A stretch of 40,324 nt of DNA. Source: an uncultured archaeon (GTDB lineage Archaea; Aenigmatarchaeota; Aenigmatarchaeia; CG10238-14; SCSR01). Within the stretch, counting starts at the first letter, position 1. Each line of letters starts with the position of its first letter. The translations under genes and the position numbers were made by a program. The notes under the pieces are model-generated. The model was not told the DNA's origin. It saw nothing but the letters and a program-made list of their open reading frames with translations, and made no database searches. Positions 2,960 to 29,215 of this stretch are shown one piece after another. The DNA lies in contig CAYRSM010000003.1 of assembly GCA_964427125.1 (NCBI GenBank), forward strand, positions 1 to 40,324. The letters are read 5' to 3'.

Positions 2960-3781
2960 GTGCAAAATAATAGCATGGATGATTTGATGAGAGAGGCGCT
3001 TGAGACAGAACTGTACGGCAAAATCAGCATCGGAAAAGCAGAGTCGGGGTCTTATGACCGACCTGAGGAAGCGAAGCGACTTTCGTCGAAACCCTTCGGC
3101 GTGGACCGTTTTTATCTGGTGTCTAATGAGGATTACTGCGATGCATCATTATCCGCGGTGGGTTCTTTGGTCGGAATCATATATTATATCGGAGTCTGCG
3201 GTGGAGGCACCCAAAATCTTTGTCTGTTGGGAAAGCTGCTCGAGAAAAACAACATAGAACGAATAAGACTGGTGGACAAGGAAAGGCGCCAGTTGGACAA
3301 TCTGGGCAAAATCGGGGACATATACAACAAATCCGATGGCGATGAAAAATACAGCGCCGCACTTATCCGGCATGCCGGCGGACCATTGAACATGATATAC
3401 GCAAGCGTGAACGAGAGAAAGCCAAAGATACGCAGGGATATAACGATTGACACCTGGATGGGGTTGGCAGAGGATTATTTGAAAAACAATGTGAATGAAA
3501 GGGGCAGATATTTCGTGTATCTTTCGAATGCCCTGTTCGGCTGGATAAAGGAGGGCGAGTCGTGCGAAATGTTGGACAGAATCTTGTCTGACGAGAAGTT
3601 CGAGGACGGCTCGGCAGTTTTCTTCTACTCTGTCAGGAGGCACGGCGGGGTGATGCTTGAGAAGAGGAACGGGAGCCTGTCGTCTCCGGACGGCGCGGCG
3701 GTGTACATGCCTGAAGAAAGGAAGGTAGTTTACAAGGACGATGATATCCTGAGCAAACTGTCGAAGACGCTGCACATTTAG
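2960..3781 (+). CDS. Hypothetical protein
   Basis: 273-aa ORF. Its coding strand was chosen over the antisense shadow ORF 3149..3775, whose translation is low-complexity and Arg/Pro/His-rich. No confident family assignment. Confidence 0.55.
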   Translation: MQNNSMDDLMREALETELYGKISIGKAESGSYDRPEEAKRLSSKPFGVDRFYLVSNEDYCDASLSAVGSLVGIIYYIGVCGGGTQNLCLLGKLLEKNNIERIRLVDKERRQLDNLGKIGDIYNKSDGDEKYSAALIRHAGGPLNMIYASVNERKPKIRRDITIDTWMGLAEDYLKNNVNERGRYFVYLSNALFGWIKEGESCEMLDRILSDEKFEDGSAVFFYSVRRHGGVMLEKRNGSLSSPDGAAVYMPEERKVVYKDDDILSKLSKTLHI

Positions 3782-3790
3782 AAAGTAAAC

Positions 3791-4528
3791 TCATTTCCTG
3801 CCTATCCTCCACACCATGTTGAAGTGGTCTGCAAAGTTCCTCGCTATCTCAGCGCTCCTTATCAGTATGGCCACGGGGCTGTCGGACCACAGGATGATGC
3901 CCACGTTGTCGCCGTATATCGAAATGCTTGTGGGCGAGACGTACTCATTTGGCAGCACCCTAACCTCAACAAGCCTGTACTTGCTCAGAAAGCTGGCGTC
4001 CCTTCTTGTCGTGACAATTTTCATACTCATCCCTTTCTTTACACGCTCCGATGTGAACCTCGGCAGGAAACCTTTCAGCAATTCCTCAGTCCTGTCTATG
4101 TCCGTGGCAATCACGTAGATGGTCTTGCCTACTCTCAGCTCGTCCAAGAACAAAGTCTTTATACCCTCCTTTCCCTCCAGAATTTCCGCGGTCGTGCCGG
4201 CTGGTCTCTGCGACATCGATTCCAGTTCCGGGATTATCTTGGTGAGTTCACGTCTTGTCTCCCTGAGTTCGTCCTCCTTCTCGCCGAGGATGTCAAGGAA
4301 TTTCGAAGGAGGGACTGCTTTGTAGAAAGTCATCCCTGATTTTTCTATCAGTGATACGATGCCCTTCTCAGCAAGCCTGCGGACCACGTCGTACACTATC
4401 CTCCTGTGCATGTTCGCTGCCTTGCCCAGGCTGCTCGCTGTTGACTCTCCGACCACTATAAGTTTTCTGTACACGCGCGCCTCATTCTCAGTAAATCCCA
4501 GTTTTTTCAGAGCCTCGTCGATTTCCAT
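3791..4528 (-). CDS. TrmB-family transcriptional regulator
   Basis: The N-terminus 'LKKLGFTENEARVYRKLIVVGESTASSLGKAANMHRRIVYDVVRRLAEKGIV' is typical of the TrmB winged-helix domain. The length fits an HTH plus an effector-binding domain. Confidence 0.8.
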   Translation of the reverse strand: MEIDEALKKLGFTENEARVYRKLIVVGESTASSLGKAANMHRRIVYDVVRRLAEKGIVSLIEKSGMTFYKAVPPSKFLDILGEKEDELRETRRELTKIIPELESMSQRPAGTTAEILEGKEGIKTLFLDELRVGKTIYVIATDIDRTEELLKGFLPRFTSERVKKGMSMKIVTTRRDASFLSKYRLVEVRVLPNEYVSPTSISIYGDNVGIILWSDSPVAILIRSAEIARNFADHFNMVWRIGRK

Positions 4529-4632
4529 AATAACAATTTGACGCGCCCGCTTAAAGCAGTCACGGTGTGGTCACCCTTGTCACCAATCCGTTTTATTACC
4601 TCACAGTGCTAAAGGATTGTTGGTGTCGTGAC

Positions 4633-5235
4633 ATGAACGGGGCGATAATGTTCGTGACCGGAAACAAAGGCAAGCTGGTCGAGGCGAAGTCTGTCATTCC
4701 AAGCATCGTGCAGCTTGATGTCGATCTGCCTGAGATACAGGAGACGGATCCCAGAAAGGTGATAGAGGCGAAGCTCAGAGAGGCGTTCAAGTACGGGAGC
4801 GGGCGCTTCATGGTCGAGGACACATCGCTGTATCTAGACTGCCAGAAAGGTTTCCCGGGACCTCTGATAAAGTGGTATCTGAAGGCTCTGTGCAACAAGG
4901 GACTGTACGAGCTCGTCAGGATGTACGGCAACTATGGCGCCGAGGCGAGGACGGTGATAGGCTATGCCGAAAGCCCGGACAAGATACATTACTTCGAGGG
5001 TTCGGCGAGGGGAAAGGTTGTAGCTCCCGCAGGCGGCGCGGGGTTCGGTTGGGACCCAATTTTCCAGCCTGACGGACATTCGAAAAGTTTTGCCGAGCTG
5101 GACCCGGTCGAGAAGAACAGGATAGGCATGAGGCGGATTGCCGTCGAGAAGCTGAAGGCTTACATAGAATCCGGAGAAAGGGACAGTGTCGTCAGTCCGT
5201 TGAAAAAAGCGGGAGGCGAGCTGTATGAAGTATAG
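4633..5235 (+). CDS. Non-canonical purine NTP pyrophosphatase (Ham1/RdgB/ITPase family)
   Basis: 'IMFVTGNKGKLVEAK', 'EDTSL', 'PGPLIKW' and 'GFGWDPIFQPDG..SFAEL...EKN' are Ham1-family motifs. I prefer the ATG at 4633 to the GTG at 4567. Confidence 0.88.
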   Translation: MNGAIMFVTGNKGKLVEAKSVIPSIVQLDVDLPEIQETDPRKVIEAKLREAFKYGSGRFMVEDTSLYLDCQKGFPGPLIKWYLKALCNKGLYELVRMYGNYGAEARTVIGYAESPDKIHYFEGSARGKVVAPAGGAGFGWDPIFQPDGHSKSFAELDPVEKNRIGMRRIAVEKLKAYIESGERDSVVSPLKKAGGELYEV

Positions 5236-10604: not shown

Positions 10605-12869
10605 ATGGCCAAACAGCAAGTTACAATCATGGGAAGGGTTTGTTTTGTCGCCGTCCTTTTCGCGGCCGTTCTGCTGGCAAGTGTTGCCTCTCGGCCCGTT
10701 CAGGCGCAATCCACAGTGAACTTCACCTACAACGTGACCTACAACTACACCGCGCACAACTCTTCGAGTTCTGTGCTGGTTTCGGCTGCGGCGAACGGCA
10801 TGGCTCTGGACACGGGCAATCCGGTGATAATCGTCTCGCCCGGAGCGCGGCTCACCGGAAGCATGACCGTGCAGGAAAGCGATTCCTGCTCGTTCTGCAT
10901 ACTGCCCGTGACTTCGGTCAACAGCTGGGACAGGGCGTTCTATTCGGCAGTCGGCTATCTGGCAGGCGACAACAATCTTCATCCGTTCACATTCTCGTTT
11001 TCCTTCACAGCCCCGATCTCTCCCGGCACATATTACATAGCTACTTTCCACAGGGCGTGCTACGCGCCGCAGGACAACGTGTACGGCTGCTACGGTCTGG
11101 GAGACCCCAGGAGGGGAGTTCCGGGCGGCGGTGACGACATATGGGACATATCCAACTTCGCGGACTGGCTCCCCGGCGGTAGCTTCTCGAGCGGCAGGGC
11201 TATCAAGGTCGTCGTGTCCGCCCCGGCGCTGCCAGACCTGTCCATAACAAACGTCTTGGGACCTGTTCAAGTGGTTTTTAATCCTGACATAAACAACGAT
11301 ACTAGAATTGACCTGGTCAAGGGGAAAAACACTACGATATTTTTGACTGCTATATTGGACGACCCAAGCAATCTGGTTCCAAGCAACCAGCCCATAGCCT
11401 TTAATCTGAGCATCGGGAATGCAGTATTTACCGAGACATTTCCTGCCGGCAATTTCAAAGGACCCGTAGTGGCGCCAATCCAGTTCTTTTTCGAGCCGAA
11501 TGAAACGGGGGACTTTACAATTAAAGTTGTCGCCGATGCCTTTAACAGCATAGCCGAGTCCAACAAGAACAACAACGTGAAGGAAGTTAATATCAGTGTA
11601 AAGGACACTGGCAATTTCCTAGCAGTGTATAAGAAAGTGGATTACACGATCGATTTTGTGCATTTGGGCCCCGTTGACAAGTATGACGAAACTGTCGGGA
11701 ACAGCAGTTTATTTTTGAACGCTACTTTTCCACTCAACCCACAAAAATTCAACACTGATAATTCAGATTCTACATTCTCTGCAGGTTTCCCGATTCCGTT
11801 ACTAAATCCGTTTCTACTTGGTAAATTTTTCAATCCAACAATTGATATGGCAGATCTTTGTACACAAGGGAGACTACAGACATCGAATCGAGCCAATGTT
11901 ACAATTGGCATAGTGTCAGATAATTATTTTAGTTTCTATGATAATGAAAACACATCAGGACTTTCAAGTCCGATTACTTGTGGTGTTTTGGCCAGACAAA
12001 CCTATTGGACAGCAGTTGCCCATGAAATTGGGCATTTGTACGGCCTTCCTGTAAACCCAGCCATTAATAGTCCTAATGGAATGGAAGAATATAATTTAAC
12101 CGATTCTGTGGTGTCTTATCCTGGTAATCCTGCAACAGGTTTTTGGGTAGACAGGAATATTTTAATCAACAACAGGGTTTGTTTCATGGGGGCTAGTAAA
12201 AATGAGACATTAGATTTTCATTGGATTGATAACGAAGATTATATGCAATTGTTCAGAAACTTTGTTTCTAATAAGAATGACCCAGAAGTACTTTTTATGA
12301 CAGGGTTTATATTTAAAAATGGGACTATAATTTTAGGTAATTGGTATAGCTTTCCAAATGGCACTATAGATACATTGCCTGTAGGAAACTATTCTATTCA
12401 AACCCTTAATAATTTAGGGAATGTCATCACCCAAACTTCGCTAGACGTTCCATTTGTCTTGAACTTTGATCCGACTGGAGCAGTAGCAATGAATGGCACG
12501 GCTTTCGCCTTTTCAATACCTTTCCCGCAAAATACCACGTCTGTAAAGATAACACTCTATAACACTACTTTAATCGTCGTCGAACCTAATTCTAAAACAT
12601 TAAGAGATGCGATTAACTCAATCCCTGATTTTGGATTTATTAACAATCCTAATCAGAGAAGAAACGCGTTAATAAACAAGATTGACGCTGTAGACAATAT
12701 GTTACAGGTCAATAACACATTTGGTGCTGTGCAAAAATTGAAATTCGACATCAAAGATAAGATAGAGAAGTGGATTGTAGAGTATGTGCCAAAAACCCCT
12801 TCACAACTTTCTAAATCTTATATTTTGGATTCAGTGGAAAATACAATAAAAAGGCTAAGTCTTTTATGA
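10605..12869 (+). CDS. Large secreted HExxH zinc-metalloprotease-like surface protein: signal peptide, N-terminal domain, CARDB-like domain, protease core, beta-rich region, then a C-terminal ~88-aa 'R' module
   Basis: Signal peptide 'MAKQQVTIMGRVCFVAVLFAAVLLASVASRPVQAQ'; 'AVAHEIGHLYGLP' with HEIGH at 12021-12035; CARDB-like ending 'DAFNSIAESNKNNNVKEVNISV'; many N-x-S/T sequons. The tracked ORF start at 10257 lies antisense inside the oxidoreductase genes and was rejected. Confidence 0.8.
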   Translation: MAKQQVTIMGRVCFVAVLFAAVLLASVASRPVQAQSTVNFTYNVTYNYTAHNSSSSVLVSAAANGMALDTGNPVIIVSPGARLTGSMTVQESDSCSFCILPVTSVNSWDRAFYSAVGYLAGDNNLHPFTFSFSFTAPISPGTYYIATFHRACYAPQDNVYGCYGLGDPRRGVPGGGDDIWDISNFADWLPGGSFSSGRAIKVVVSAPALPDLSITNVLGPVQVVFNPDINNDTRIDLVKGKNTTIFLTAILDDPSNLVPSNQPIAFNLSIGNAVFTETFPAGNFKGPVVAPIQFFFEPNETGDFTIKVVADAFNSIAESNKNNNVKEVNISVKDTGNFLAVYKKVDYTIDFVHLGPVDKYDETVGNSSLFLNATFPLNPQKFNTDNSDSTFSAGFPIPLLNPFLLGKFFNPTIDMADLCTQGRLQTSNRANVTIGIVSDNYFSFYDNENTSGLSSPITCGVLARQTYWTAVAHEIGHLYGLPVNPAINSPNGMEEYNLTDSVVSYPGNPATGFWVDRNILINNRVCFMGASKNETLDFHWIDNEDYMQLFRNFVSNKNDPEVLFMTGFIFKNGTIILGNWYSFPNGTIDTLPVGNYSIQTLNNLGNVITQTSLDVPFVLNFDPTGAVAMNGTAFAFSIPFPQNTTSVKITLYNTTLIVVEPNSKTLRDAINSIPDFGFINNPNQRRNALINKIDAVDNMLQVNNTFGAVQKLKFDIKDKIEKWIVEYVPKTPSQLSKSYILDSVENTIKRLSLL

Positions 12870-13201
12870 AGACGGATTTAATAAAATTATTTCGTCCCAC
12901 CAGAAAAAAGGCAATTATATCTTTTATAATCTTCCTTGTTTTTCCCACGCCTATACCTGTTAACTACGAATATTCCAACATACGCTATATGCCAATACCC
13001 AATATATTTTTAACTTTGCCGCTGATAATTACAAATTCTATACTTACTATTATATTTGGTGCAGGACCATCTTCGGAAGATTTAAATAAAATGATTGTAT
13101 ACCCGCCATTTATTATATCGATTGTCCTATCGTATCCTTTAGCCTGTTTATTTGTAGGAATTTGGGATAAGGTGAAGACAAGGAAGGGTGATAAAAGATG
13201 A
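12866..13201 (+). CDS. Small integral membrane protein (about 3 TM, basic C-tail), cassette partner M1
   Basis: 111-aa ORF with hydrophobic stretches 'AIISFIIFLVF', 'IFLTLPLIITNSILTIIFGA' and 'FIISIVLSYPLACLFVGIW'. There are ATGA start/stop overlaps at both ends (12866-12869 and 13198-13201). Confidence 0.6.
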   Translation: MKTDLIKLFRPTRKKAIISFIIFLVFPTPIPVNYEYSNIRYMPIPNIFLTLPLIITNSILTIIFGAGPSSEDLNKMIVYPPFIISIVLSYPLACLFVGIWDKVKTRKGDKR

Positions 13202-13467
13202 TTGAATACATTGCCAGATCTATTCCGAGCTTTGGGTTTGTAAACGACCCGGAACAGAGAAGAGGCGCCTTATCAAATAAACTGGATGCTATGGAGCATA
13301 TGCTGCAAGTAAATAATACATTCGGGGCGGCGCAAAAGCTGAAATTCGACATAAGAGACAAGATAGAAAAATGGGTTGTTGACTACCTACCACAAAATTC
13401 ATTGCAACTCTCTAAAGGTTTCATATTGAACTTACTCGATAGAACAATTTCAAGGCTGAGCGTATGA
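13198..13467 (+). CDS. Free-standing copy (R2) of the metalloprotease C-terminal module
   Basis: 89 aa. My hand alignment gives 54 of 88 identical positions to the last 88 residues of ORF 10605..12869 ('SIP.FGF.N.P.QRR.AL.NK.DA...MLQVNNTFGA.QKLKFDI.DKIEKW.V.Y.P....QLSK..IL......TI.RLS'). Confidence 0.75.
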   Translation: MIEYIARSIPSFGFVNDPEQRRGALSNKLDAMEHMLQVNNTFGAAQKLKFDIRDKIEKWVVDYLPQNSLQLSKGFILNLLDRTISRLSV

Positions 13468-13877
13468 AACACAAGCTATTAATAACTATTCTGGCAGTCG
13501 TATCCGTAGCGCTTATACCCTTGATTATATTGTTGTTTTCAAGTTCCTTGGTTGTAGACAGAAACATTGCGTATAGTGCCATATGCGATGTCACATTTAT
13601 TGACAAAAATTCCACGTCGTATAAGATTGAAATAGTGAAGTGCGCAGGAAAAGAATCCGGTCTGAGCAAAGCTAGATATTTCGGCGACCAATTGCCACCA
13701 AAATCAGTTATAACAATAATTGATTATTACAATTCTTTAGGCAACACTACCGTGGGGGAAACATACAGATTGATTGGAATAACAACCCCGGGTTCTGGCA
13801 AGTTCTCTCCTCTGCCTGCAAGTATAATCCCTCGACAGGGAGATTTATTGGAAGCCTTCAAGAACATCGCTGGTTAA
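13464..13877 (+). CDS. Small secreted or membrane-anchored protein (N-terminal TM/signal anchor), cassette partner M2
   Basis: 137-aa ORF with N-terminal 'LLITILAVVSVALIPLIILLF'. Its start overlaps the R2 stop (ATGA at 13464-13467). Confidence 0.6.
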   Translation: MKHKLLITILAVVSVALIPLIILLFSSSLVVDRNIAYSAICDVTFIDKNSTSYKIEIVKCAGKESGLSKARYFGDQLPPKSVITIIDYYNSLGNTTVGETYRLIGITTPGSGKFSPLPASIIPRQGDLLEAFKNIAG

Positions 13878-13880
13878 AAT

Positions 13881-14147
13881 ATGAAAGATGCGATTAACTC
13901 TATACCAGATTTTGGATTTATCAACAATCCTGATCAAAGGAGAAACGCTTTGCTAAACAAAGCGGATGCTATTGAAAATATGCTTAAGGTGAACGATACG
14001 TTTGGTGCTGCCCAAAAGCTACAATTTGATTTAAAAGACAAGATGGAGAAATGGCTTACTAATTATACTGTAGGAACTCCACTGGAGTTTACCAAACCAA
14101 AGATGCTTTCGTTGATAGAAAACATACTTTCTAGGCTGGCGAGATAA
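13881..14147 (+). CDS. Free-standing copy (R3) of the metalloprotease C-terminal module
   Basis: 88 aa. It begins 'MKDAINSIPDFGFINNPDQRRNAL', against 'LRDAINSIPDFGFINNPNQRRNAL' in the protease. 54 of 88 positions are identical by hand alignment, and the first ~65 nt are strongly conserved at the DNA level. Confidence 0.75.
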   Translation: MKDAINSIPDFGFINNPDQRRNALLNKADAIENMLKVNDTFGAAQKLQFDLKDKMEKWLTNYTVGTPLEFTKPKMLSLIENILSRLAR

Positions 14148-14151
14148 AAAT

Positions 14152-14466
14152 ATGGAAACCCCTGTCATGAACAAAAATCTTATCACATCCTTGGTTAAGA
14201 AGTTGTCTATAGCAACTGCCATTTATTTGGTTACAATATCGCTTACCTATTTCAATGTTATACCAGCCTTTCGCATATGCGGCAAGGGCGGAAGCTGTTA
14301 CGAATATTTCGGCCTGCCCTATGGTACGATAATAGTCAAAAGCAACGGTGTTGAGGAAATGACAATAAATTTGTTATCGATACCTTCGGATATTTTCCTT
14401 TGGTACATCTTGGTATCGGTATTGATGTGGTTGTTCGAATCTCAAAAGAAAGTGAAAAAGAAATGA
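14152..14466 (+). CDS. Small membrane protein (2 TM, basic C-tail), cassette partner M3
   Basis: 104-aa ORF with 'LSIATAIYLVTISLTYF' and 'IFLWYILVSVLMWLF', ending in 'KKVKKK'. It starts 4 nt after R3. Confidence 0.6.
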   Translation: METPVMNKNLITSLVKKLSIATAIYLVTISLTYFNVIPAFRICGKGGSCYEYFGLPYGTIIVKSNGVEEMTINLLSIPSDIFLWYILVSVLMWLFESQKKVKKK

Positions 14467-14617
14467 TAAAATCTGTACCAGACTTCGGATCCATTAATAA
14501 TACCGAACGGAGAAGAACTACCTTACTGAACAAATTAGATGCCATAGAAAGATAGGAAAATGGGTAGTGGACTATACTCCTGGAAATTTTCTGCATCTTT
14601 CAAAAGGCTACGTATAG
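14463..14617 (+). pseudogene. Decayed fourth copy (R4) of the R module
   Basis: The ATG at 14463 overlaps the M3 stop. It reads 'MIKSVPDFGSINNTERRRTTLLNKLDAIER' and then TAG at 14553. The module resumes in another frame at 14558 as 'KWVVDYTPGNFLHLSKGYV' followed by a stop. About 22 central residues are missing relative to R1-R3. Confidence 0.7.
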
Positions 14618-14622
14618 AATAT

Positions 14623-14634
14623 ATATTTAAAAGC
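14623..14634 (+). promoter_or_regulatory. Candidate archaeal TATA box for the rpl18e-rpl13-rps9 operon
   Basis: 'TATATTTAAAAG' lies about 38 nt upstream of the ATG at 14667 in an AT-rich spacer. Position and composition are the only evidence. Confidence 0.35.
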
Positions 14635-14666
14635 CTAAAATCACTATCTATAAGACGTGAGAATCC

Positions 14667-15029
14667 ATGGCAAGGACGGGACCCACAAACGAGCAGTTGA
14701 ACACCCTTATAGAGGCGCTCAGGACAAAGTCCAGGGAGGAGAAGGCGCCGATATGGAGGGACGTGGCTGAGAAGCTGGAGAACCCCACGAGGCAGAGGGT
14801 CGAGGTCAACCTTTCGGACATCGACAGGAACGCGGGCGCAAAGGAGACCATAGTGGTGCCCGGAGTGGTCCTGTCGAACGGCGAGCTGACAAAGCCGGTC
14901 ACGATAGCCGCATGGAGGTTTTCGGAGGGCGCCATAGAGAAGATAAATGGCGCGGGGAGCAAGTCTTCTACCATAGAGGAGCTGGTAAAGTCGAACCCGA
15001 AGGGCAGCAAGGTCAGGATAATGGTGTAA
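14667..15029 (+). CDS. rpl18e: 50S ribosomal protein L18e
   Basis: 'MARTGPTNEQLNTLIEALR....APIWRDVAEKL..PTRQRVEVNLSDI', and its place in the conserved L18e-L13-S9 order. Confidence 0.9.
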   Translation: MARTGPTNEQLNTLIEALRTKSREEKAPIWRDVAEKLENPTRQRVEVNLSDIDRNAGAKETIVVPGVVLSNGELTKPVTIAAWRFSEGAIEKINGAGSKSSTIEELVKSNPKGSKVRIMV

Positions 15030-15950: not shown

Positions 15951-16898
15951 ATGTATTTTGATAAGCATTGTTTGGAGGACGTGATTCACGGTACTTTGCT
16001 GGGCGATGCTTGTATCAGAGTTGATAGAAAAAAGTATTATTACTATAGCCTGAATGCCAAAGACAAGAATTTTCTATTTTGGTTTAAGGGGATAATGGAA
16101 AGATTTGACATACCTACGTACATAACGGTAAGCAATAAACAGTCCAAAGTCTTTGCACTGGGATTTTATATAAATGCCCGCAAAAGCGATTATTTGCTTG
16201 GACTGAGAAATACATGGTATACAAAAATCGACGATAAAACAGTTAAAACGTTCCCAAATGATTTGAAACTAACCCCTGCAACATTGCTATTCTGGTATTT
16301 GGGTGATGGCTGTCTGGTTAGAAGAAAGAACGACGATAACAGGATTCCGACCATAGTCTTGGCAACAAACTGCTTTTCGAAGGAAGACATCGACTTTCTG
16401 ATACAAAAGCTGAAGGAAATTAATCTGAACTTTTACCCGATAAAATACAAAAGCGGATTCACCGGCAAGGAATGTGGTTACTGCCTTTATTCGAAGACCG
16501 AGGACGGCACGCCGTACAGATTCTTCAAGGCGATAGGATTAGAATGCCCGAAGGAAATAGCGGACTGCAGCACCGGCAGCAAGGGGATTTACCGCGAGGA
16601 GAAGTTCTTCAGGAACAAGTGGCCAACGGAGGAAGACTGGGTCAAGATACTTTCAAATGTAAATGAGGTCGGGCCTATTCTCAGGGAAACTCGGCTGAAA
16701 CTTGGCCTGTCACAGAACCAGTTCGGCGGAAAAGTCGGCATGCGGCGGGAGAACATCCGGGACGTGGAGATGATGAAGAGGCATTTTCTCGCAAAGAATT
16801 TCAGGAAAGCCGTGGAAGCGCTGGGTCTGGACGCGCCAATCATCCTGGAACGGCTTGCGGCAAACGGTCCGCCCCAGACAGCTTTATCAAATTTATAA
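15951..16898 (+). CDS. Free-standing LAGLIDADG endonuclease-like protein with a C-terminal XRE-type HTH
   Basis: Motifs 'IHGTLLGDACI' and 'LLFWYLGDGCL'. The C-terminal 'LRETRLKLGLSQNQFGGKVGMRRENIRDVE' looks like an HTH_3 domain. The gene is flanked by very AT-rich spacers and lies between rps9 and rpoN. Confidence 0.78.
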   Translation: MYFDKHCLEDVIHGTLLGDACIRVDRKKYYYYSLNAKDKNFLFWFKGIMERFDIPTYITVSNKQSKVFALGFYINARKSDYLLGLRNTWYTKIDDKTVKTFPNDLKLTPATLLFWYLGDGCLVRRKNDDNRIPTIVLATNCFSKEDIDFLIQKLKEINLNFYPIKYKSGFTGKECGYCLYSKTEDGTPYRFFKAIGLECPKEIADCSTGSKGIYREEKFFRNKWPTEEDWVKILSNVNEVGPILRETRLKLGLSQNQFGGKVGMRRENIRDVEMMKRHFLAKNFRKAVEALGLDAPIILERLAANGPPQTALSNL

Positions 16899-17190: not shown

Positions 17191-17805
17191 TTGGAAAATG
17201 CACAATTGTCATTTGAAAGATCAATAAAGAAAAGTCCCAACGAAACAATAAAAGATGTAACAATTGGTAACCGAGGCGGAAGTGGGACATACGATATATT
17301 GTATCTGAAAAATCACGACATTTGGGTTTGTTTTGGCGGAACAACATGCGAATACAAATGTTGGAATAAGCTTGTTGGAGAATGTGAGAAAAAGGGAAAA
17401 TGTCAACGAGAAAGATATTGGAATGCCTTTGGTACAGGAAAACCTGATGAAAAATCTACAGTGAGTATAGTGTCAGAAATCAATATGCCTACAAATAGGA
17501 AGGACTTTAGAATAGGTGGCGTGTTGGCTAAAGATAAGGACACAGGCAGAATAGCACTTTTCCATACTGGTAAAATAGGCGGCGGCAGAAAAGGCATAGG
17601 ATCCAAGTTCTTTTATGAAAAGTATCATGGTGAATTATATTACAGAAATGACAACGGTGATATAGTTGCAAAAGGAAATAGCATAGGGTTTAAGAAAAAA
17701 GTCGTTATGATAGGATACTTGGAGGACGACGATTTTTCCAAAAAGGTAAGTACATTTGTAAAAGAAGTGCATGGAATAAAGAAATTGAAATATCCTGATG
17801 GCTAG
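17191..17805 (+). CDS. Hypothetical protein in an AT-rich segment
   Basis: 204-aa ORF with a TTG start. The first in-frame ATG is far downstream. I recognise no motif. Confidence 0.5.
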   Translation: MENAQLSFERSIKKSPNETIKDVTIGNRGGSGTYDILYLKNHDIWVCFGGTTCEYKCWNKLVGECEKKGKCQRERYWNAFGTGKPDEKSTVSIVSEINMPTNRKDFRIGGVLAKDKDTGRIALFHTGKIGGGRKGIGSKFFYEKYHGELYYRNDNGDIVAKGNSIGFKKKVVMIGYLEDDDFSKKVSTFVKEVHGIKKLKYPDG

Positions 17806-17825
17806 TTTCAAACTTGGCCTAGAAT

Positions 17826-18119
17826 TTAACTTTTTATGTGCTTCAAAATATCCTTTCCTTCTTTTGTCAGTTCATAGATCCTGCCCACCCTTTCGTTCGG
17901 CGTTTTCAGTTCCACTATGCCCTTACCCACGAATTCCTTCAGTGTGCGGGAGACATGAGATACGCTCACCCCGACTTCCGATGCGATTTCAGTCGGCGTT
18001 TTGGAAACACTTAGAGAAGCTACTATGGCCTTCCTCTTTTTGGAACGCAGGACGAACGAGAGGAGCTTGTAATCCATGTTTAACAGTTTGAGGACACACG
18101 TTTTGTAACCGTCTAACAA
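17826..18119 (-). CDS. Small winged-helix (ArsR/MarR-like) transcriptional regulator
   Basis: 'KRKAIVASLSVSKTPTEIASEVGVSVSHVSRTLKEFVGKGIVELKTP...GRIYELTKEGKDIL'. An alternative start at 18077 ('MDYKLLSF') is possible. Confidence 0.7.
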   Translation of the reverse strand: MLDGYKTCVLKLLNMDYKLLSFVLRSKKRKAIVASLSVSKTPTEIASEVGVSVSHVSRTLKEFVGKGIVELKTPNERVGRIYELTKEGKDILKHIKS

Positions 18120-18169
18120 AGTATTTACAATTATTTAACAATTTAAGCTGTCGCACCCCAAATTAGATT

Positions 18170-18844
18170 ATGGAAAGACCTAGATTGGTTGTATTGGCTA
18201 TATTGGGTTTGGTGCTTTTCGCTATACTTTTCATACCGATTTACGCCACTCACTATAGTCAGGCTCCTGTTAAAAAAGCTGGCGCAAACGATATAAGTCT
18301 CGGTCCAATTGACTGGGGTAGTGGATATTCTCCAGGTTTTCCTACATCCATGAACTACCCTCCTGGTGTCAATGATATAAGGACTATCTACGTGAAAGCA
18401 ATTTGCACCGTAACAGAAAAGTTATCGATAAAAACGTTTATCGACGGTCAAGATTTGTTGAATGCATCCAATCGCTACAATTTAATGGATTGCCCAACAT
18501 CCGTTTGGTGGGATGATGGTGCTTTACCTTTGGATTCTTCATTGACCCATGTATTTAAACTATGTTGGGGAATAACTACGGATGAAGTTGATAGTGGTTC
18601 AAATTGCGCCACTGTTACGATACCTTCTTTCACTTGTAAAAAATACAACGAACCGTGCACTATACGTTCATTTACCCCAGCACCACAATATTTTACAAAC
18701 GATTGTTGCGGAAACTCGCAGGGCTATCAGGCAGTATGCGCCACTCCGATACAATCTCCCAATGGACAAACAGCGTTCAATCCTGTTATGTCAGCTGCCG
18801 GTAGCGGAATTTGTAAGAGGATTGTTAATCTGGAGACACAATAA
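18170..18844 (+). CDS. Secreted or membrane-anchored Cys-rich protein
   Basis: 224-aa ORF with the N-terminal hydrophobic anchor 'LVVLAILGLVLFAILFIPIYA' and multiple Cys in the C-terminal half. It is transcribed divergently from the wHTH regulator. Confidence 0.6.
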   Translation: MERPRLVVLAILGLVLFAILFIPIYATHYSQAPVKKAGANDISLGPIDWGSGYSPGFPTSMNYPPGVNDIRTIYVKAICTVTEKLSIKTFIDGQDLLNASNRYNLMDCPTSVWWDDGALPLDSSLTHVFKLCWGITTDEVDSGSNCATVTIPSFTCKKYNEPCTIRSFTPAPQYFTNDCCGNSQGYQAVCATPIQSPNGQTAFNPVMSAAGSGICKRIVNLETQ

Positions 18845-27311: not shown

Positions 27312-28085
27312 ATGGTCGTTTTGCTTACAAGGAAATTTTTCATTTCTACATACGAAAATAAGAAACTCGGTGTTCACTATTCTAAGAAACACGCCTATCT
27401 TTTCCCAATCCGCCCATCAACAACATTGGCTGGGATTATAGCGGACATAACGGGAGACGGTCACCTTGGTCATGGACTCATACAGTTTACAGCAAAGGAC
27501 AAGAAGGAAGTGCTCAGATTCAGGCGGGAATTCTGCAAGATTTTTCGTCACAAATGTAGCATCAGAAAATCGAGTACATTTCAAAATACTTGGGAATGTT
27601 TGGTGGGTTCAAATACGTTGCACAGGATATTCAAGCTGTTGGGTACGCCGTACGGAAATAAAACCAATACGAAGTTCACTGTGCCAGAATGGGTAAAGAA
27701 CGGTGAAGACGACATTAGGAGAAGATACCTGCAACGGCTGTTCGAATGCGAAGGGTCTGTGAGACTGCAAAGGGGCAACAGGATAGTCATCAAAATAGCA
27801 TTTTACAAAAATGAAAGGCTTCGAAATAACTTGGAGGAGTTCCTTTTGGAGATAAAATCCATGCTTCTTTCATTTGGCATCAAGACGACAAACTTGACCC
27901 GTGACGGTCTTCATCTGCGCAAGGATGGTAGCAGGAGCATAGGTCTCGCATTTGAAATACATGGCACGGCAAAGAACACGTATTCTATGGATAACTTCTA
28001 CAAGAAGGTCAACTTCGAGAGTTCTATAAAAAGAGAAAAACTCAAAATGTATTTAAGCGGATTGAAGAAGGCCCCATTAAGCTGA
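27312..28085 (+). CDS. Free-standing LAGLIDADG (double-motif) endonuclease-like protein, paralogue of ORF 500..1483
   Basis: 'LAGIIADITGDGHLG' and 'YLQRLFECEGSV'. Shares 'VPEWVKNGEDDI' and 'FESSIKREKL' with ORF 500..1483. AT-rich. The stop codon lies 1 nt before the tRNA-Arg 5' end. Confidence 0.8.
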   Translation: MVVLLTRKFFISTYENKKLGVHYSKKHAYLFPIRPSTTLAGIIADITGDGHLGHGLIQFTAKDKKEVLRFRREFCKIFRHKCSIRKSSTFQNTWECLVGSNTLHRIFKLLGTPYGNKTNTKFTVPEWVKNGEDDIRRRYLQRLFECEGSVRLQRGNRIVIKIAFYKNERLRNNLEEFLLEIKSMLLSFGIKTTNLTRDGLHLRKDGSRSIGLAFEIHGTAKNTYSMDNFYKKVNFESSIKREKLKMYLSGLKKAPLS

Positions 28086-28258: not shown

Positions 28259-29215
28259 TTGCAATACAAAATTAAACTGGTGAAATTATGGCACGGCTTT
28301 TTCGACTTACAAAACCAAGAATTAATCAAAGCAGAAGAGAAACCCTTTTCTGACGAAGTAACTGAGATGGAGACTTTCATAAAGAAGAATGCTCGCGTTT
28401 TAGGCGACATTTTCATTTTTGGTGAACAAACAGCATCGTCTGAGCGTGACAAAAGAGTTGATCTTCTTGCGGTAAATAGGGATGGTGAAATTCTAATAAT
28501 CGAGCTTAAGAAGGACCAAGCATCAACTGATATAATCACACAAGTTTTGAAGTACAAAGCATATTGGAAGACTCATCCAGATTCAGCACGAAGTATTTGG
28601 GAACAGGCAAAGGGCAGACCTGAGGATATAGAACCTGATTGGAGCAATTACAACCCAAAAATTGTCATTGTTGCACCATCTTTTGATAGCGAGTTAATTC
28701 AAACCTCGACTCAGAACAATCTTGATATTCGTTTTGTAGAAATTACGAGATATGTGCATGGCGACTCGATGTTTGTTGTTGTTGATGAACTAGAGCCGTC
28801 AATAACAAGAGAAGCAGTGATTTCCACAAGACTCGAATATGATTGGGATTGGTATAATAAAGAGGTCGTTCGTAGCGAAGACCAGGTCAAGATTGGCAAG
28901 TACCTTCAAGAGGAAATTTTAAAGTTGTGTCAGGGGAAAGGATGGAATATCTCACCTAAATTCAATAAATTTTATTTGGCTTTCAAGTATGGTGGCAATA
29001 ATCCGTTTTGGATAGAATTTTATCATAAAGGAAAAGTGGCTGTGTGCGTCAATCTTAGGGATCAGAAAATACGTCCGCCATCAAGTTCTAACGTTCAATG
29101 GCAATGGAACAAAACTTGGGAACATTGGTATGTAGATGTTGACACCGCATCATTTGATGTGAATGACATCGAGGCTTCATTAGAATTGGCGTACAATAAT
29201 ACCATGAGGGCATAA
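28259..29215 (+). CDS. PD-(D/E)xK nuclease-like protein (NucS/DUF91/RecB-like core) with an uncharacterised ~200-aa C-terminal region
   Basis: 'RVDLLAVNRDGEILIIELKKDQASTDIITQVLKY' gives the D...E-x-K plus QxxxY arrangement. The start is a TTG at 28259, with an in-frame GTG at 28280 as an alternative. AT-rich. Confidence 0.6.
   Translation: MQYKIKLVKLWHGFFDLQNQELIKAEEKPFSDEVTEMETFIKKNARVLGDIFIFGEQTASSERDKRVDLLAVNRDGEILIIELKKDQASTDIITQVLKYKAYWKTHPDSARSIWEQAKGRPEDIEPDWSNYNPKIVIVAPSFDSELIQTSTQNNLDIRFVEITRYVHGDSMFVVVDELEPSITREAVISTRLEYDWDWYNKEVVRSEDQVKIGKYLQEEILKLCQGKGWNISPKFNKFYLAFKYGGNNPFWIEFYHKGKVAVCVNLRDQKIRPPSSSNVQWQWNKTWEHWYVDVDTASFDVNDIEASLELAYNNTMRA

Follow-up and report, generated by a model that had tools for sequence, protein, structure and literature searches.

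The window analyzed here is a stretch of 40,324 nucleotides (nt) from an uncultured archaeon of the Aenigmatarchaeota (contig CAYRSM010000003.1 of assembly GCA_964427125.1, positions 1 to 40,324, forward strand), and our subject is an array of repeated genes that lies within it, downstream of a gene for a secreted metalloprotease. The C-terminal module of this protease, which we call R1, recurs as two free-standing genes, R2 and R3, and as a decayed copy, R4; R1, R2 and R3 are each followed by a gene for a small membrane or secreted protein, M1, M2 and M3, respectively (Table 1). The array is located between a minus-strand 2-oxoacid:ferredoxin oxidoreductase operon and the L18e-L13-S9-RpoN ribosomal cluster, and R4 is followed by the L18e operon's promoter region. 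An initial annotation, made from the sequence alone, had delimited the copies and likened their arrangement to that of bacterial polymorphic toxin loci. The array proved to be real, with the open reading frames (ORFs) and coordinates of R1, R2 and R3 as first described, apart from a refinement of the limits of R1.

Table 1. Features of the protease gene and of the array downstream of it (window positions; aa, amino acid residues)
Feature	Position	Strand	Basis
Secreted metalloprotease gene, 754 aa	10605-12869	+	ORF; Pfam; AlphaFold2 (AF2) core model; Foldseek
Signal peptide and variable N-domain	10605-11231	+	Part of protease
CARDB domain	~11232-11606	+	Pfam, Foldseek, PDB profile match
Catalytic domain with HEIGH	~11616-12266	+	Part of protease
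Beta-sandwich	~12288-12581	+	Part of protease, ahead of R1
R1, three-helix C-terminal module fused to protease (last 89 residues)	12600-12866	+	Family hidden Markov model (HMM), E 1.5e-36
M1, 111-aa multi-pass membrane protein, start overlaps protease stop (ATGA)	12866-13201	+	Hydropathy; partner profile E 8.6e-5
R2, free-standing gene, 89 aa, own ATG overlapping M1 stop	13198-13467	+	Family HMM E 4.6e-33
M2, 137 aa, N-terminal signal anchor and soluble domain with two Cys	13464-13877	+	Hydropathy; no library match
R3, free-standing gene, 88 aa, own ATG	13881-14147	+	Family HMM E 4.8e-37; also on Logan contigs
M3, 104-aa membrane protein with two transmembrane helices	14152-14466	+	Hydropathy; partner profile E 1.1e-3
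R4, decayed copy	14463-14619	+	Similarity in two frames, broken
Compositionally foreign block	11670-14650	none	GC3 0.2-0.49 versus 0.63-0.82 in flanks and protease N-domain

The protease gene most likely starts at the ATG at 10605, from which a protein beginning with MAKQQ and a signal peptide is read, and its HExxH motif, HEIGH, is encoded at 12021-12035. The CARDB domain (PF07705) scores 25.4 bits in Pfam, above the cut-off of 22.7, and is a member of that family; Foldseek matches it to the PF1109 CARDB structures 2kl6 and 3idu (E ~6e-6), and a PDB profile match was found at 2e-7. In Pfam, the protease shows only weak Reprolysin matches (Reprolysin_4), and no match to Pfam M66 was found; H264, E265 and H268 are near-invariant. 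The AF2 model of a 545-residue core has a predicted local distance difference test score (pLDDT) of 92 and a predicted template-modelling score (pTM) of 0.91, the latter indicating that R is packed firmly onto the remainder of the core. The top Foldseek match of this core is StcE (3ujz; E 1.6e-7, probability 1.0), with a low TM-score of 0.31. StcE (MEROPS M66) is likewise an HExxH zincin with flanking immunoglobulin-like or beta-sandwich domains, but the sequences are only about 9% identical and the motif of the window protease is HExxHxxGL...EEY. We know of no R-type three-helix tail on StcE and of no M-type partner gene beside it. The N-domain of the window protease has homologues that are 52-58% identical in other proteins, one of them a PEGA-domain protein of Candidatus Methanoperedens.

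R is a conserved, undescribed C-terminal domain of a large and uncharacterised family of secreted HExxH proteases. Word-indexed protein searches with R profiles returned almost nothing beyond the window's own proteins, and it was an exhaustive HMMER profile search that found the family, with 390 representative clusters (50% identity) at E<=1e-3 and 189 at E<=1e-10. In 131 of 153 domain matches the module lies no more than 15 residues from the C-terminus, and 80 of the 84 long R-bearing proteins contain HExxH. The constant core of these proteases consists of CARDB, the StcE-like catalytic domain, the beta-sandwich and R; their N-terminal domains vary (ThuA-like, Kelch, PD40 or NosD beta-helix), and bacterial members have a type IX secretion system sorting domain added behind R. 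The idea that R is a promiscuous tail borne by many different secreted proteins was rejected, since nearly all of the short matches are truncated proteases that retain the beta-sandwich ahead of R, and R is thus bound to this protease family. A second protease of the family, 49% identical and with a PQQ beta-propeller as its N-domain, was found in the same sample as the window (locus L026); its R has an internal insertion and is followed by a 37-residue tail, and the next gene is of the M family.

The initial annotation did not recognize R as a described family, and neither Pfam nor NCBIfam has a model over R or over the catalytic domain, and Foldseek and PDB sequence searches with R gave generic helical bundles only, with no significant PDB match. 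Likewise, R2, R3 and M1-M3 have no match in Pfam, NCBIfam, PADLOC or PHROGs. Modelled by AF2 with R3 as the basis and an alignment of 71 sequences, R is a three-helix bundle (pLDDT 96.8) with predicted helices at residues 17-36, 40-58 and 72-87. A named domain with weak similarity to R is FIMAH (PF22888), an accessory of secreted and surface proteins and likewise a short helical bundle in extracellular multidomain enzymes. Sub-threshold matches to it occur in 11 of 71 R-family members (best E 3.8e-4); in the window, R1 (within the full-length protease), R2 and R3 gave nothing at E<=1, and the gathering threshold was not reached. A literature search for the FIMAH domain found no paper. Judged from these profile matches, a distant relationship between R and FIMAH is possible, and not membership. 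At locus L028, two paralogous proteins with FIMAH-like helical sequence (...LNAAINALNAFSNHLKAQKGKGVSEEDV...) are encoded 3' of an R-bearing protease and its M gene (3443-3955 and 4443-4856); the R profile does not recognize them.

The similarity of R1, R2 and R3 is beyond chance, as their E-values against the family HMM indicate. MAFFT alignment gives 61% identity for R1/R2, 61% for R1/R3 and 51-53% for R2/R3, in agreement with the 54 of 88 identical positions counted by hand in the initial annotation for the first two pairs. The claim that R2 and R3 begin at the module boundary also holds: DNA homology among the copies begins within a few nt of the module start and stops at the stop codon, and nothing else is repeated between 11 and 15 kb in the window. 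Successive R starts are spaced by 598, 683 and 582 nt, with identical boundaries each time. R4, already regarded as decayed, consists of a 30-codon ORF (14463-14555) followed by a second piece in a different frame (~14549-14619), with about 60 nt deleted internally. The junctions that chain the seven units were likewise read from the sequence, with four ATGA overlaps (at 12866, 13198, 13464 and 14463), a gap of 3 nt ahead of R3 and one of 4 nt ahead of M3. GGTGAT is located 6 nt 5' of the R2 ATG, and the absence of any T5 run from 13012 to 14700 is compatible with a single transcript. Production of M-R fusion proteins through frameshifting at the ATGA overlaps was considered and rejected, in view of an in-frame stop two codons 5' of the R2 ATG and for lack of a convincing slippery site. 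Inspection of the sequences revealed a signal peptide on neither R2 nor R3, while R1 is exported as part of the protease.

The nucleotide identity among the copies is 62-67% and the longest exact matches are of 9-15 nt, which makes ongoing homologous exchange between them unlikely. Between R1 and R3, DNA identity is 80-90% in the first 20 codons, compared with about 40% in the last 30, and to this extent the high similarity noted earlier over the first ~65 nt stands. Over this stretch, however, the proportion of nonsynonymous differences (pN) is 0.07 and that of synonymous differences (pS) 0.55, with a longest exact match of 15 nt, so that the similarity mainly reflects constraint on the amino acid sequence; on these partitioned values, a recent tract of gene conversion or recombination between R1 and R3 was rejected. 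In pairwise comparisons over the whole of R1-R3, pS is 0.75-0.80 (saturated) and pN 0.21-0.29. The most divergent part is helix 3 (pN up to 0.49) and the most constrained is the N-terminal motif. R2 and R3 are intact, keep 11 of 12 near-invariant family positions, the twelfth being the start Met, and carry the signature of purifying selection. In a neighbor-joining tree of 147 modules, R1, R2 and R3 group as a clade; bootstrapping of a 34-sequence subset supports this clade in 71 of 100 replicates and R1+R2 in 79, and no outside sequence is nearer to R2 or R3 than R1 is.

The partners had been taken to be mutually unrelated, and for M2 this is correct, as it matches neither M1, M3 nor the partner profile. 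This profile was built solely from five membrane proteins encoded downstream of R at other loci (L010, L014, L026, L027 and L028). It recognizes M1 (nearly full length) and M3, the only non-training matches among 2083 six-frame ORFs, with the E-values listed in Table 1. It also matches the neighbor of R at L031 (E 2.3e-7). Partner proteins from other loci had no match in Pfam. By BLASTP, M1-M3 show no similarity apart from weak matches in the C-terminal helices. The family is marked by F-[LK]-[KR]-P-T-x-x-K ahead of the first helix, a last helix of the (W)YLLSCL type and a basic tail; M1 has LFRPTRKK ... YPLACLF and a basic tail, and M3 has ...LWYILVSVL... and a basic tail. On sequence grounds, M1 and M3 are thus assigned as distant members of one fast-evolving family of small membrane proteins, which occurs directly 3' of R-bearing proteases at at least seven other loci. 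The M2 stop codon (TAA) is in frame with R3, with only the TAA and one codon between them (13875-13883). At L024 (844-846), a secreted 99-aa protein is in frame with the next R across a single TAA, where the aligned position of the protease copy has GAA. For these two pairs one may think of read-through, of a fusion that was split recently or of coincidence, the chance of which is about 1 in 9.

A search for related loci with a 12-sequence subset of R bore out the expectation that R adjoins a gene for a small membrane or secreted protein in other genomes. A co-directional gene for a small transmembrane or signal-peptide protein follows R at 11 loci, namely the window, L004, L010, L014, L021, L024, L025, L026, L027, L028 and L031; at L025, R is free-standing and is followed by a protein with two transmembrane helices. 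At L003 and L030, R is followed by a convergent gene for a transmembrane-anchored protein of a family that we call X, and at L007, L011, L013, L015 and L018, which are more distant and mostly of bacterial type, neither a small partner nor X was found after R. The X proteins are anchored N-terminally and are encoded directly behind R, with the motifs GIAERRAREFF... and AVGRDGEAFLLPDEFN (L003 2097-2987, 3408-4868 and 5207-5986; L030 4430-5131); the middle L003 paralogue is internally duplicated.

Extra copies of R 3' of the protease, which the initial annotation proposed to look for, occur in two other lineages. L003 (identical to L008; a contig of Candidatus Methanodesulfokora washburnensis) has three R fragments alternating with three convergent X paralogues. 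L024, with a GC content of 0.29, has the order protease-R, 99-aa secreted Cys-rich protein, second R and transmembrane protein; its repeat, 80% identical at the DNA level, spans the last ~20 codons of the beta-sandwich (~60 nt), R and some 35 nt beyond its 3' end, and the genes between the repeats are unrelated to each other. L003 could also be compared with L021, from a related korarchaeal strain. The flanks are 86-93% and 90% identical, but blastn finds no match between the catalytic domains, and identity is 68% for the resident R copies. Nor is the cargo shared, as L021 has two small paralogous membrane proteins and L003 the X/R array. The region that runs from the catalytic domain into the cargo is thus hypervariable between related korarchaeal strains, with conserved flanks. 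An orphan R of L003, which has a 1-nt deletion, is 78% identical to the resident R of L021 and 72% to its own, a modest difference in an unrooted comparison of three sequences. At L021 (8094-10447, in a 1.05-Mb Methanodesulfokora-like genome), and also at L022 and L023, from two independent assemblies, the protease is spread over separate ORFs. The final one (148 aa, half of the beta-sandwich plus R) is in a different frame from the one before it and has its own ATG 13 nt past the preceding stop; a pseudogene, a gene split in two and a site of recoding are all conceivable here.

The base composition of the window changes within the protease gene (11232-11700), right behind the CARDB domain. 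GC content at third codon positions (GC3) is 0.63-0.82 in the flanking genes and 0.66-0.82 in the signal peptide and N-domain of the protease, passes through 0.52-0.58 across the CARDB transition zone (11232-11669) and is 0.2-0.49 from ~11670 through the end of the array, with 0.2-0.4 from the catalytic domain onward, 0.31-0.36 in R1/M1 and slightly higher values, 0.38-0.49, in R2-M3. Strain data for the window locus come from two independent Logan contigs, in the public runs SRR5161795 and SRR5161805, both of which are 100% identical to the window over 12363-14774. These runs are copper-mine tailings metagenomes from which Methanoperedenaceae genomes have been assembled (PMC7327174).

Evidence from the window and from the related loci suggests that the array is a stack of R-plus-partner tail units at a fast-changing locus, formed by tandem duplication and/or by replacement of the 3' end, a reading, mode of origin included, for which we see about even prospects. 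The region would be the distal part of a single operon headed by the Sec-secreted HExxH metalloprotease, with its CARDB and StcE-like catalytic domains. M1 is the kind of partner usually found downstream of R-bearing proteases, and it is followed by two more intact tail units, R2-M2 and R3-M3, and then by one decayed R, R4. These units were presumably copied from the R-plus-partner tail of the protease, at a 3' end that seems to turn over quickly in related archaea, and would be translated off the protease transcript via stop/start coupling, with R2 and R3 expected to be expressed in this manner. R is most likely a protein-binding (docking) domain and, as far as its sequence and predicted fold indicate, probably not a toxin; its cognate would be the adjoining membrane partner, and helix 3, its most variable part, may determine the specificity of pairing. 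Docking or anchoring of the protease to a membrane partner would be the most economical idea for the R-M pair. In functional terms the situation may be analogous to that of dockerin and cohesin, as R is likewise a conserved, C-terminal, non-catalytic module of secreted enzymes whose other domains vary, encoded beside a candidate membrane-anchored partner. Dockerins are Ca-binding EF-hand-like repeats. They have no sequence or fold relationship to R, however, and leaderless free-standing docking modules are not a feature of cellulosomes. The initial annotation had offered a docking or adaptor role as a fallback; it fits the data better than a toxin does, with the caveat that R2 and R3, unlike R1, are not provided with a signal peptide.

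Several observations weigh against this picture. With leaderless R2 and R3, an exported R1 and an M2 whose bulk is predicted to be extracellular, the notion that each R docks on its own M is topologically awkward, and the conserved motifs of the M family are on the cytoplasmic side. M2 is not paralogous to M1 or M3, and the support for the monophyly of R1-R3 is moderate only (71%). Moreover, since the extra R copies of L003 are plainly decaying and R4 is broken, a free-standing R may be a by-product and not a functional gene, and the selection signature of R2 and R3 could date from a time when, in a donor lineage, each was still the tail of a protease.

As to how the units arose, tandem duplication of an R-M unit has roughly an even chance of being correct. 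It accounts for the equal spacing and identical boundaries of the units, for the paralogy of M1 and M3 and for the R clade, and it implies that selection kept R2 and R3 as free-standing proteins. Less probable, but to be taken seriously, is serial displacement, in which divergent alleles comprising the catalytic domain, R and the partner gene would have been imported and joined by repeated recombination to the 5' part of the protease gene, itself constant, pushing older R-partner units downstream; the orphan R copies would then be inert remnants at differing stages of decay, R2 and R3 being recent ones, and the partners might have been retained to provide immunity to, or compatibility with, former alleles of the protease. 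The drop in GC3 inside the protease gene after CARDB, which persists throughout the array, speaks for such a process, as do the slight rise in GC3 from R1/M1 to R2-M3, the unrelatedness of M2, the decay of R4 and of the L003 fragments, the contrast at L003/L021 between conserved flanks and a divergent catalytic domain, R and cargo, and the affinity of the degenerate L003 orphan to the L021 resident R. The last comparison is unrooted and its difference modest, however, and both Logan contigs are identical to the window locus. The R1-R3 clade, to which no outside sequence comes nearer, also argues against displacement. Furthermore, the starts of all three window orphans fall no more than a few codons from the module boundary, each orphan having its own ATG and no 'handle' of beta-sandwich sequence, so that displacement needs the extra assumption of R-mediated right-hand crossovers that inherited one ancestral junction. 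For a recombinational replacement of the 3' end together with its partner, akin to the swapping of C-terminal tips that the initial annotation cited from toxin loci, there are signs in the GC3 break and in the L003/L021 hypervariability; the R copies themselves are too diverged for homologous exchange to be ongoing. A bolder form of the idea, which we regard as rather improbable, is that the R sequence has a dual role, encoding a binding domain and serving as a homology arm for the integrase-free exchange, between archaeal strains, of a block made of the StcE-like catalytic domain, the R tail and the cognate membrane protein. The locus would then be a counterpart of polymorphic effector/immunity loci, its effector being a protease that cleaves surface glycoproteins, and the stack of M genes would be a record of immunity to or compatibility with earlier alleles.

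A classical polymorphic toxin-immunity system of the CDI (contact-dependent inhibition) or Rhs kind, with R as the toxic tip, M as the immunity protein and R2/R3 as promoterless orphan cassettes for recombination onto the protease, has very little to commend it beyond the layout. The array does share with such loci (CDI cdiA-CT/cdiI and Rhs; for their hallmarks see Zhang et al., 2012, PMC3482391) a large secreted protein, a small partner gene and further pairs of 3' module and partner, and in this layout the organization first proposed is borne out; there is also evidence that the 3' part of the protease gene, together with the downstream cargo, turns over faster than the flanks. Yet it is the repeated C-terminal module that is conserved here, R being the most conserved part of the family, and the N-terminal domains and partner genes that vary. 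R is a three-helix bundle without catalytic or pore-forming features, weakly similar to FIMAH and to coiled coils, with no significant PDB match and no match to a toxin or defense family in Pfam, NCBIfam or PADLOC. The orphans of the window possess start codons and have no conserved pre-toxin handle or other upstream homology (only that of L024 keeps its ~60 nt of beta-sandwich), and the low identity and short exact matches among copies make efficient homologous exchange unlikely. Furthermore, any replacement here would exchange one protease allele for a divergent one and would bring in no unrelated toxin. We give equally little credence to R2-R4 as silent cassettes in the manner of pilS, that is, as gene-conversion templates that diversify the R1 tail. 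The strong 5' similarity of R1 and R3, set against their divergent 3' ends, is what one would look for in this case, but its synonymous divergence marks it as mostly protein constraint, the exact matches are no longer than 15 nt, and silent cassettes have no need of the start codons and coupled partner genes that are present.

The analysis defines two undescribed and widely distributed families, the R domain and its fast-evolving small membrane partner, which together form a conserved gene pair in archaea (Korarchaeota, DPANN-type archaea and Methanoperedens-associated samples), at loci with unusually fast turnover that has left stacks of tails and partners in three lineages. If R and M are indeed a docking or immunity couple, they would open a way to learn how secreted proteases are anchored or policed in archaea, and the array would be a rarity among archaea, namely a polymorphic surface locus of cassette type; if they are not, it is a well-documented case of segmental duplication at the 3' end of a gene.

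Among markers of mobility, no tRNA gene that could indicate an integration site was found in the window, and no relative was found in the viral contigs searched. Outside the array, other low-GC pockets (0.38-0.41), at 17191-18844 and 28259-29215, contain ORFs of 204, 224 and 318 aa without a Pfam match. The 40-kb window also has three free-standing ORFs of the LAGLIDADG type (500-1483, 15951-16898 and 27312-28085), of which the second and third are located in lower-GC stretches; one of the three, of 315 aa and with an HTH_3 domain, lies in the ribosomal-protein cluster, where rps9 and rpoN flank it.

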